From Escherichia coli (GTDB lineage Bacteria; Pseudomonadota; Gammaproteobacteria; Enterobacterales; Enterobacteriaceae), in assembly GCF_003334355.1 (NCBI RefSeq), contig NZ_QOWP01000039.1: DNA of 30,913 nucleotides, one strand, 5' to 3'. The notes under the pieces are model-generated. The model was not told where the DNA came from. It saw only the letters and a program-made list of their open reading frames with translations, and searched no databases. This document shows, piece after piece, positions 29,497 through 30,442 of the stretch; position 1 is the first letter of the stretch, and each line of letters starts with the position of its first letter. Both the position numbers and the translations under genes were made by a program.

Positions 29497-29601
29497 CTGA
29501 GAGCACAAAGTTTCCCGTGCCAACAGGGAGTGTTATAACGGTTTATTAGTCTGGAGACGGCAGACTATCCTCTTCCCGGTCCCCTATGCCGGGTTTTTTT
29601 T
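29497..29601 (+). ncRNA. gadY: GadY small RNA (cis-antisense to the gadX 3' UTR)
   Basis: The -10-like tatatt at 29484-29489, then ACTGAGAGCACAAAG... ending at the intrinsic terminator cccgg...ccggg plus 8 T (29575-29601). It lies on the strand opposite gadX, starting about 17 nt beyond the gadX stop, and matches my recollection of GadY. Confidence 0.7.
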
Positions 29602-29617
29602 ATGTCTGAGTAAAACT

Positions 29618-30442
29618 CTATAATCTTATTCCTTCCGCAGAACGGTCAGTGCCGTAAAAATTCCCTTGCGCAACAATACTTGCCGCCGAGTCACGGTTCG
29701 ACAATCTCTGCGCCGATCGCTCCTGATACTCTGTGGGCGTCATCCCATAATAATTTCGAAAGACGTAAATGAAATACGACACGCTGTGATATCCACAGGA
29801 TACTGCAACTCGCTTAATTGAAAAACCATGTATAACAATAAGTTGCAAAGCACGTTGCATTCTACACTCAGTAAGCAACTGTGAATATGATGTCTCTTCT
29901 TCGCGCAATTTTTTCTTTAACAGACTTGGACTCATCAACAGCTCGCTGGCGATTCGGGCTAGTGTCCACTCATGGGCGATATTATTATTGATAACCGTAC
30001 AAACTCGTGTTCGCATGTTCGGTTGTAAAACGTTCAGAAGCAGCGGTATAAAGTGCTCATCCTCAAGAAAAACAGATAACAACGCAAAGATTAATGCTCT
30101 TTTACGTAGCATTTCTGCATAGCGAAGATTCTTATTCTGCGATAGTTGCGCAACTTCCTGAAAAACAGGAATATCTCTACTACAGTGATGAACGAGTAAT
30201 GAAGAAACTTTTTTATGTGCATGAAGATTTAATGCCTCCTCCTTGAGCATCGGGAGAAATAATGAAAGCGTGTCCCTTGACACGAATACAAAATTTTCAA
30301 CACACTTATCTACTCGAATTTGGCTTGCATCCGCAAAAACCAGGTCACCGCCATTAAAATAGCGATATTCACCATTAACCATGGTGAGAATATATTTATG
30401 TCTTGCATACGCAATTAGACAATTCCCATGTAGTGATTGCAT
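29618..30442 (-). CDS. gadX: AraC-family acid-resistance regulator GadX (274 aa)
   Basis: 274-aa ORF with C-terminal AraC-type HTH (GYHSVSYFIYVFRNYYGMTP); recognised as GadX. Confidence 0.95.
   Translation of the reverse strand: MQSLHGNCLIAYARHKYILTMVNGEYRYFNGGDLVFADASQIRVDKCVENFVFVSRDTLSLFLPMLKEEALNLHAHKKVSSLLVHHCSRDIPVFQEVAQLSQNKNLRYAEMLRKRALIFALLSVFLEDEHFIPLLLNVLQPNMRTRVCTVINNNIAHEWTLARIASELLMSPSLLKKKLREEETSYSQLLTECRMQRALQLIVIHGFSIKRVAVSCGYHSVSYFIYVFRNYYGMTPTEYQERSAQRLSNRDSAASIVAQGNFYGTDRSAEGIRL

Follow-up and report, generated by a model that had tools for sequence, protein, structure and literature searches.

The small RNA gene gadY of Escherichia coli: a known cis-antisense arrangement at the 3' end of gadX and a strongly conserved sequence

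Introduction

What does the long spacer between gadX and gadW hold in the acid fitness island of Escherichia coli, and how far does its content explain its length and its conservation? This spacer of 367 nt (64% A+T) is the setting of gadY, and GadY is a textbook antisense RNA with a positive effect on the level of its target, as part of the circuit for the survival of E. coli in stomach acid. We addressed the question in a 30,913-nt stretch of E. coli DNA (hereafter the window), in which an earlier note, made from the sequence alone, had placed a plus-strand small RNA cis-antisense to the 3' end of gadX. The locus is organized as follows.

28522-29250, minus strand: gadW coding sequence, 242 amino acids, downstream cistron of the gadX-gadW message (ORF list, K-12 annotation).
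29251-29495, no strand: gadY-gadW divergent promoter region, i.e., the rest of the spacer, 245 nt, variable in E. coli (position relative to the annotated genes).
29496-29601, plus strand: gadY small RNA gene, 106 nt as annotated (Rfam RF00122, exact match to b4452).
29602-29617, no strand: 16-nt gap that separates the end of GadY from the stop codon of gadX, not conserved (variable at 8 of 16 columns).
29618-30442, minus strand: gadX coding sequence, 274 amino acids, AraC-family activator (ORF list, K-12 annotation).

Results

Identity and coordinates of gadY

Using the Rfam models on the whole window, we found that GadY (RF00122) matches the plus strand at 29493-29606 with 150 bits (gathering score, 45; E value, 4e-32), over model positions 1 to 114 of 114 and with every base being that of the family consensus. 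Furthermore, the ncRNA gadY of the curated RefSeq record of K-12 (b4452, NC_000913.3 3664864-3664969) is identical to window positions 29496-29601 over 106 of 106 nt, so that the comparison with the published GadY sequence, which the earlier note had put forward as a check, confirmed its identification of the gene. The curated record has the order gadW, gadY, gadX and gadA, with gadW and gadX at the coordinates of the corresponding ORFs of the window. In the PGAP-annotated E. coli records no feature is annotated under the spacer, gadY being annotated in the curated K-12 record only. The published full-length form of the RNA is named GadY 105 (PMC4574537).

Together with the covariance-model score above the gathering score and the identity to the K-12 gene, the position of the RNA between gadX and gadW, its opposite strand, its overlap with the gadX 3'UTR and its 3' Rho-independent terminator identify it as a member of the GadY family. 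The window shares with GadY of K-12 (formerly IS183) the same 106-nt sequence, strand, gadW and gadX flanks, terminator and spacing of 16 nt from the stop codon of gadX. The feature is thus the known small RNA gene gadY in its known arrangement, and biologically nothing new.

Regarding the coordinates, the small RNA gene had been located from the raw sequence to within one base at its 5' end, proposed at 29497 and annotated at 29496, and exactly at its 3' end (29601). On the minus strand, 29618-29620 read as TAG, the stop codon of gadX; position 29620, where the earlier note had closed the range, is therefore the outer base of this stop codon and falls outside the RNA. The overlap was nevertheless rightly placed just 3' of the gadX stop, on the opposite strand. 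As 16 nt separate the end of GadY from this stop codon, the overlap is confined to non-coding RNA downstream of the gadX coding sequence.

The RNA is identical in the window and in MG1655, from which the last 2.8 kb of the window differ by three SNPs, none of them in gadY. On a larger scale, positions 1199-17867 and 17863-30913 are 99.6-99.9% identical to K-12 MG1655, and the window lacks the IS5T element that splits yhiS in that strain (junction at 17863-17867). From these two observations, the window comes from a non-K-12 E. coli strain in which the yhiS region is uninterrupted.

Promoter, structure and terminator

The elements of the gadY transcription unit are the following, all on the plus strand.

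29484-29489, plus strand: TATATT, a -10-like hexamer in the promoter of gadY that lies 6 nt before A29496 (read from the sequence).
29496-29542, plus strand: 5' stem-loop domain of GadY, with a GGA at RNA position 32 (Rfam consensus structure; minimum free energy (MFE) fold, -10.3 kcal/mol).
29547-29567, plus strand: second stem-loop of GadY, 7 bp with a 7-nt loop and a GGA at the 5' stem-loop junction (Rfam structure; fold, -7.9 kcal/mol).
29575-29601, plus strand: intrinsic terminator of gadY, a stem-loop at 29575-29593 followed by T8 at 29594-29601 (terminator scan).

The strong terminator attributed to the small RNA was recovered as the sole terminator-like site in 29200-29700, where shuffled sequences lead one to expect 0.3; its hairpin has six pairs, five of which are G-C, and a 7-nt loop (-8.8 kcal/mol). 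As to the -10 element that the RNA was said to own, the TATATT hexamer is present and is unchanged in all seven other Escherichia sequences compared, but taken alone it stays within chance, the plus strand of the 367-nt spacer holding five hexamers of equal quality, and the sigma-70 scan returned no -35/-10 pair for gadY. The MFE fold of GadY agrees with the Rfam structure. Its energy is unremarkable (z = -0.73), like that of the gadX 3'UTR strand (z = -0.84), and all stem positions are the same in the Escherichia sequences compared, so that there is no covariation signal either way on the three-hairpin structure.

Predicted read-through of gadX and the rest of the spacer

Between the stop of gadX and the start of gadW, the scan gave no terminator-like site for the minus strand; the first plausible candidate is located downstream of gadW (28450-28437). 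It follows that gadX transcripts should carry the whole complement of GadY, and the opposite transcript is thus predicted to run through the antisense gene, as is required of a cis-antisense RNA. The target can be described as follows.

29496-29601, minus strand: GadY target, gadX 3'UTR / gadX-gadW intercistronic RNA, complementary to GadY by construction (duplexfold, 106 bp, -219 kcal/mol).

A cluster of double-stranded RNA presumably covers about 29511-29589 of this segment, with an offset of 1,977 between versions.2 and.3 of U00096. This abundant cluster of RNase III-derived double-stranded RNA, captured with p19 at gadY in stationary phase, lies at U00096.2 3,662,902-3,662,980 (PMC7373196), and shows transcription of both strands and their pairing in vivo.

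The length of the spacer had been ascribed to GadY, which holds for one part of it only: GadY and the 16-nt gap make up 122 of the 367 nt, whereas the other 245 nt correspond to the gadY-gadW divergent promoter region, so named in the title of Tramonti 2008. Promoter fusions of gadY cover -245 to +13/+14 (PMC7286202, PMC10057817).

Conservation of the gadY block

The spacer was found in 5414 of the 5426 complete E. coli genomes. Queried with the 106 nt of gadY, 5413 E. coli genomes gave a match, in all cases at least 99% identical. A control of equal length, taken from 29300-29405 in this spacer, reached at least 99% identity in 3402 genomes, 95-99% in 946 and 90-95% in 1044, i.e., 1990 of its copies are below 99%, versus none for gadY. 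When aligned with three E. coli strains, the spacer differs only in its gadW-proximal half.

We also counted the variable columns among six sequences, namely the window, two further E. coli strains and three Escherichia loci. A single column out of 107 varies in gadY, due to one extra A, as compared with 150 of 729 in gadW, 57 of 181 and 13 of 65 in the upstream spacer and 8 of 16 in the gap before the gadX stop. Across these Escherichia lineages the coding and non-coding DNA next to gadY varies at 20-50% of columns. By this measure the gadY block is the most conserved segment of the locus, and it is under strong purifying selection. The most variable stretch of the locus is the gap itself (29602-29617), which abuts the invariant GadY block.

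The three Escherichia loci, whose GadY scores 143-150 bits, came from a scan for exact 20-mers in one genome per species (100,044 species), which finds exact matches only, so that diverged copies, as in E. albertii or E. fergusonii, could escape it. A further 20-mer match, in a Bacteroidales MAG, was rejected as due to chance, since it lies inside unrelated sequence and is accompanied by no Rfam match.

Individual genomes depart from the window in various ways. In Escherichia sp. MOD1-EC7003 (locus L009, 1122-3383), a 622-bp deletion equivalent to window positions 29864-30485 removes the start and the 5' part of gadX, while GadY is still identical over 106 of 106 nt and gadW is intact. In E. 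coli E69 (locus L008, 11871-12810), a divergent lineage whose locus shares about 82% identity with that of the window, the sole difference in GadY is an additional A in the A-run around 29506, the gadX ORF has 266 amino acids versus 274, and the bases at the position of the window's stop codon are different. In E. coli KFu015 (locus L006, 3001-4231), one of about 12 complete E. coli genomes without the locus, the first 61 nt of the spacer are closely followed by an IS1A element; the genes gadY, gadX and gadA are absent, and ccp is left truncated.

Discussion

A model for GadY at the gadX-gadW locus

From these data and the literature, we propose with high confidence that gadY encodes an independently transcribed plus-strand small RNA of about 105 nt, which would pair with the read-through gadX RNA, leading to its processing and to higher levels of the gadX and gadW RNAs. 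According to this model, gadY would be transcribed from its own promoter and ended by its own intrinsic terminator, while gadX, devoid of a terminator of its own, would yield transcripts that continue toward gadW and carry the 106-nt complement of GadY from 16 nt past the stop codon. Upon accumulation of GadY (in stationary phase or mild acid, according to the literature), the RNA would pair with its complement in the gadX RNA, and the duplex would be cleaved, with RNase III and one or more further activities taking part. The gadX and gadW RNAs so produced would be more abundant, and GadX and then the glutamate decarboxylase genes would be increased.

For the expression of GadY, its pairing in vivo, the cleavage and the stabilization, we rely on published work. 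First, Northern blots displayed three forms, GadY 105, 90 and 59 (PMC4574537), and both Hfq binding and stationary-phase induction have been reported (PMC4574537, PMC11300174). Second, the overlap of GadY with the gadX 3'UTR is described as needed for regulation and mRNA stability as increased (PMC5502269, PMC10057817), and GadY as exerting a positive effect on gadX and gadW via base pairing and cleavage (PMC3937726, PMC3919570); the dependence of the effect on the overlap goes back to Opdyke 2004 and 2011, summarized in PMC5502269, PMC3937726 and PMC3919570. Third, PMC3919570 maps the GadY-dependent cleavage inside the paired region and states that it persists at slightly shifted sites in an rnc mutant, suggesting a second double-strand nuclease. 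The nuclease is named inconsistently within PMC10783499, as RNase E in the text and as RNase III in a figure legend. The arrangement matches this published model, in keeping with the earlier note, which had read it as that expected for GadY-directed processing or stabilization of the gadX-gadW message; as far as the sequence allows one to judge, nothing contradicts the cis-antisense model.

Possible roles of GadY beyond pairing with gadX

Pairing in cis leaves the invariance of the whole RNA unexplained, since both strands mutate together. This invariance, together with the preservation of an intact GadY despite the loss of the 5' part of gadX, suggests further roles. Tentatively, and with somewhat less than even confidence, we consider that selection may act mainly on sequence-specific features, such as Hfq or CsrA binding, nuclease recognition and trans targets, or on a constrained structure of the gadX-gadW RNA, antisense pairing being one of several functions. 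As trans roles of GadY have already been published, this reading would extend what is known rather than amount to a discovery. The contrast in conservation seen at gadY serves as a reminder that a cis-antisense RNA may be subject to constraints other than that of pairing.

It is rather unlikely, in our opinion, that GadY is selected mainly in trans, through Hfq-dependent pairing with unlinked mRNAs or through CsrA titration, and that its antisense position is secondary or historical. Several lines of evidence bear on this proposal. First, the cis pair would remain complementary under any mutation, and yet the 106 nt are at least 99% identical in the 5413 genomes and near-invariant across divergent Escherichia; this conservation could also reflect the gadX-gadW RNA strand, or nuclease or Hfq recognition serving the cis function. 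Second, GadY is retained unchanged in MOD1-EC7003 despite the truncation of gadX, a deletion that is known from one genome and may be recent. Third, GadY harbors two GGA motifs, one of which is at a hairpin loop junction, and published work describes a titration of CsrA that affects pgaABCD and biofilm (PMC10057817) and names SdiA as a target (PMC11300174). Fourth, and in opposition to a mainly trans role, the regulation of gadX reportedly needs the overlap region (PMC5502269), GadY-dependent cleavage is mapped within the paired region (PMC3919570), and double-stranded RNA has been captured at the locus (PMC7373196). The cis and trans roles are partly compatible and do not exclude each other.

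The main effect might instead come from the transcription of gadY by itself, colliding with or occluding the polymerase that proceeds from gadX to gadW, and thereby tuning gadW independently of RNA pairing. The two units are convergent and overlapping with no terminator between gadX and gadW, and the gadY promoter is reportedly much stronger than that of gadW in reporter assays (PMC7286202). We nonetheless regard such interference as very improbable: GadY is reported, in PMC3937726 and PMC3919570, to be positive on both gadX and gadW via pairing and cleavage, and interference would leave unexplained the conservation of the entire transcribed sequence.

Finally, the view that there is no independent small RNA, and that the hairpin and T-run are a gadX 3'UTR element or a bidirectional terminator, can virtually be dismissed, because the full-length match to a curated small RNA family and to an annotated ncRNA, the three Northern forms (PMC4574537) and the active gadY promoter fusions (PMC7286202, PMC10057817) outweigh the chance-level -10 hexamer, the undetected -35/-10 pair and the ability of the terminator complement to form a hairpin in the gadX RNA (-7.9 kcal/mol), a hairpin that is preceded by A8, is followed by no U-run and was not called as a minus-strand terminator. 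The bidirectional terminator was rejected, as only the plus-strand hairpin is followed by a U-run.

Comparison with other antisense RNAs and other small RNAs of the window

As a cis-antisense RNA reported to pair with the gadX RNA, GadY resembles two known systems. Similarly to GadY, RatA of Bacillus subtilis is a convergent small RNA that lies over the 3' end of a neighboring mRNA, txpA, with the involvement of RNase III (PMC5502269, PMC3919570); the sequences are unrelated, and RatA triggers target degradation, in contrast to the increase in target level reported for GadY. The OOP RNA of phage lambda likewise directs RNase III cleavage of a polycistronic mRNA (cII-O), with a residual cleavage at shifted sites in rnc mutants, a comparison drawn in PMC3919570. 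Unlike GadY, which overlaps non-coding RNA only and acts positively, OOP covers coding sequence, at the 3' end of cII, and its effect on cII expression is negative.

Other small RNAs of the same chromosomal region, ArrS beside gadE and AgrB beside dinQ, also neighbor stress-response genes, but these neighbors are different and the sequences are unrelated to GadY. In the window, ArrS (22617-22686, minus strand, upstream of gadE) is placed by the K-12 annotation and has no Rfam match at the gathering threshold. Two tandem Rfam AgrB matches (13894-13977 and 14125-14208, plus strand; 106 and 108 bits) correspond to the AgrA/AgrB pair of K-12 beside the dinQ toxin gene. An Rfam ES205 match (23643-23714, plus strand), just downstream of the gadE coding sequence, corresponds to GadF of K-12, and a weak match to ES036 (CssrF) occurs at 5075-5115 on the plus strand, with 42 bits for a gathering score of 37.6.
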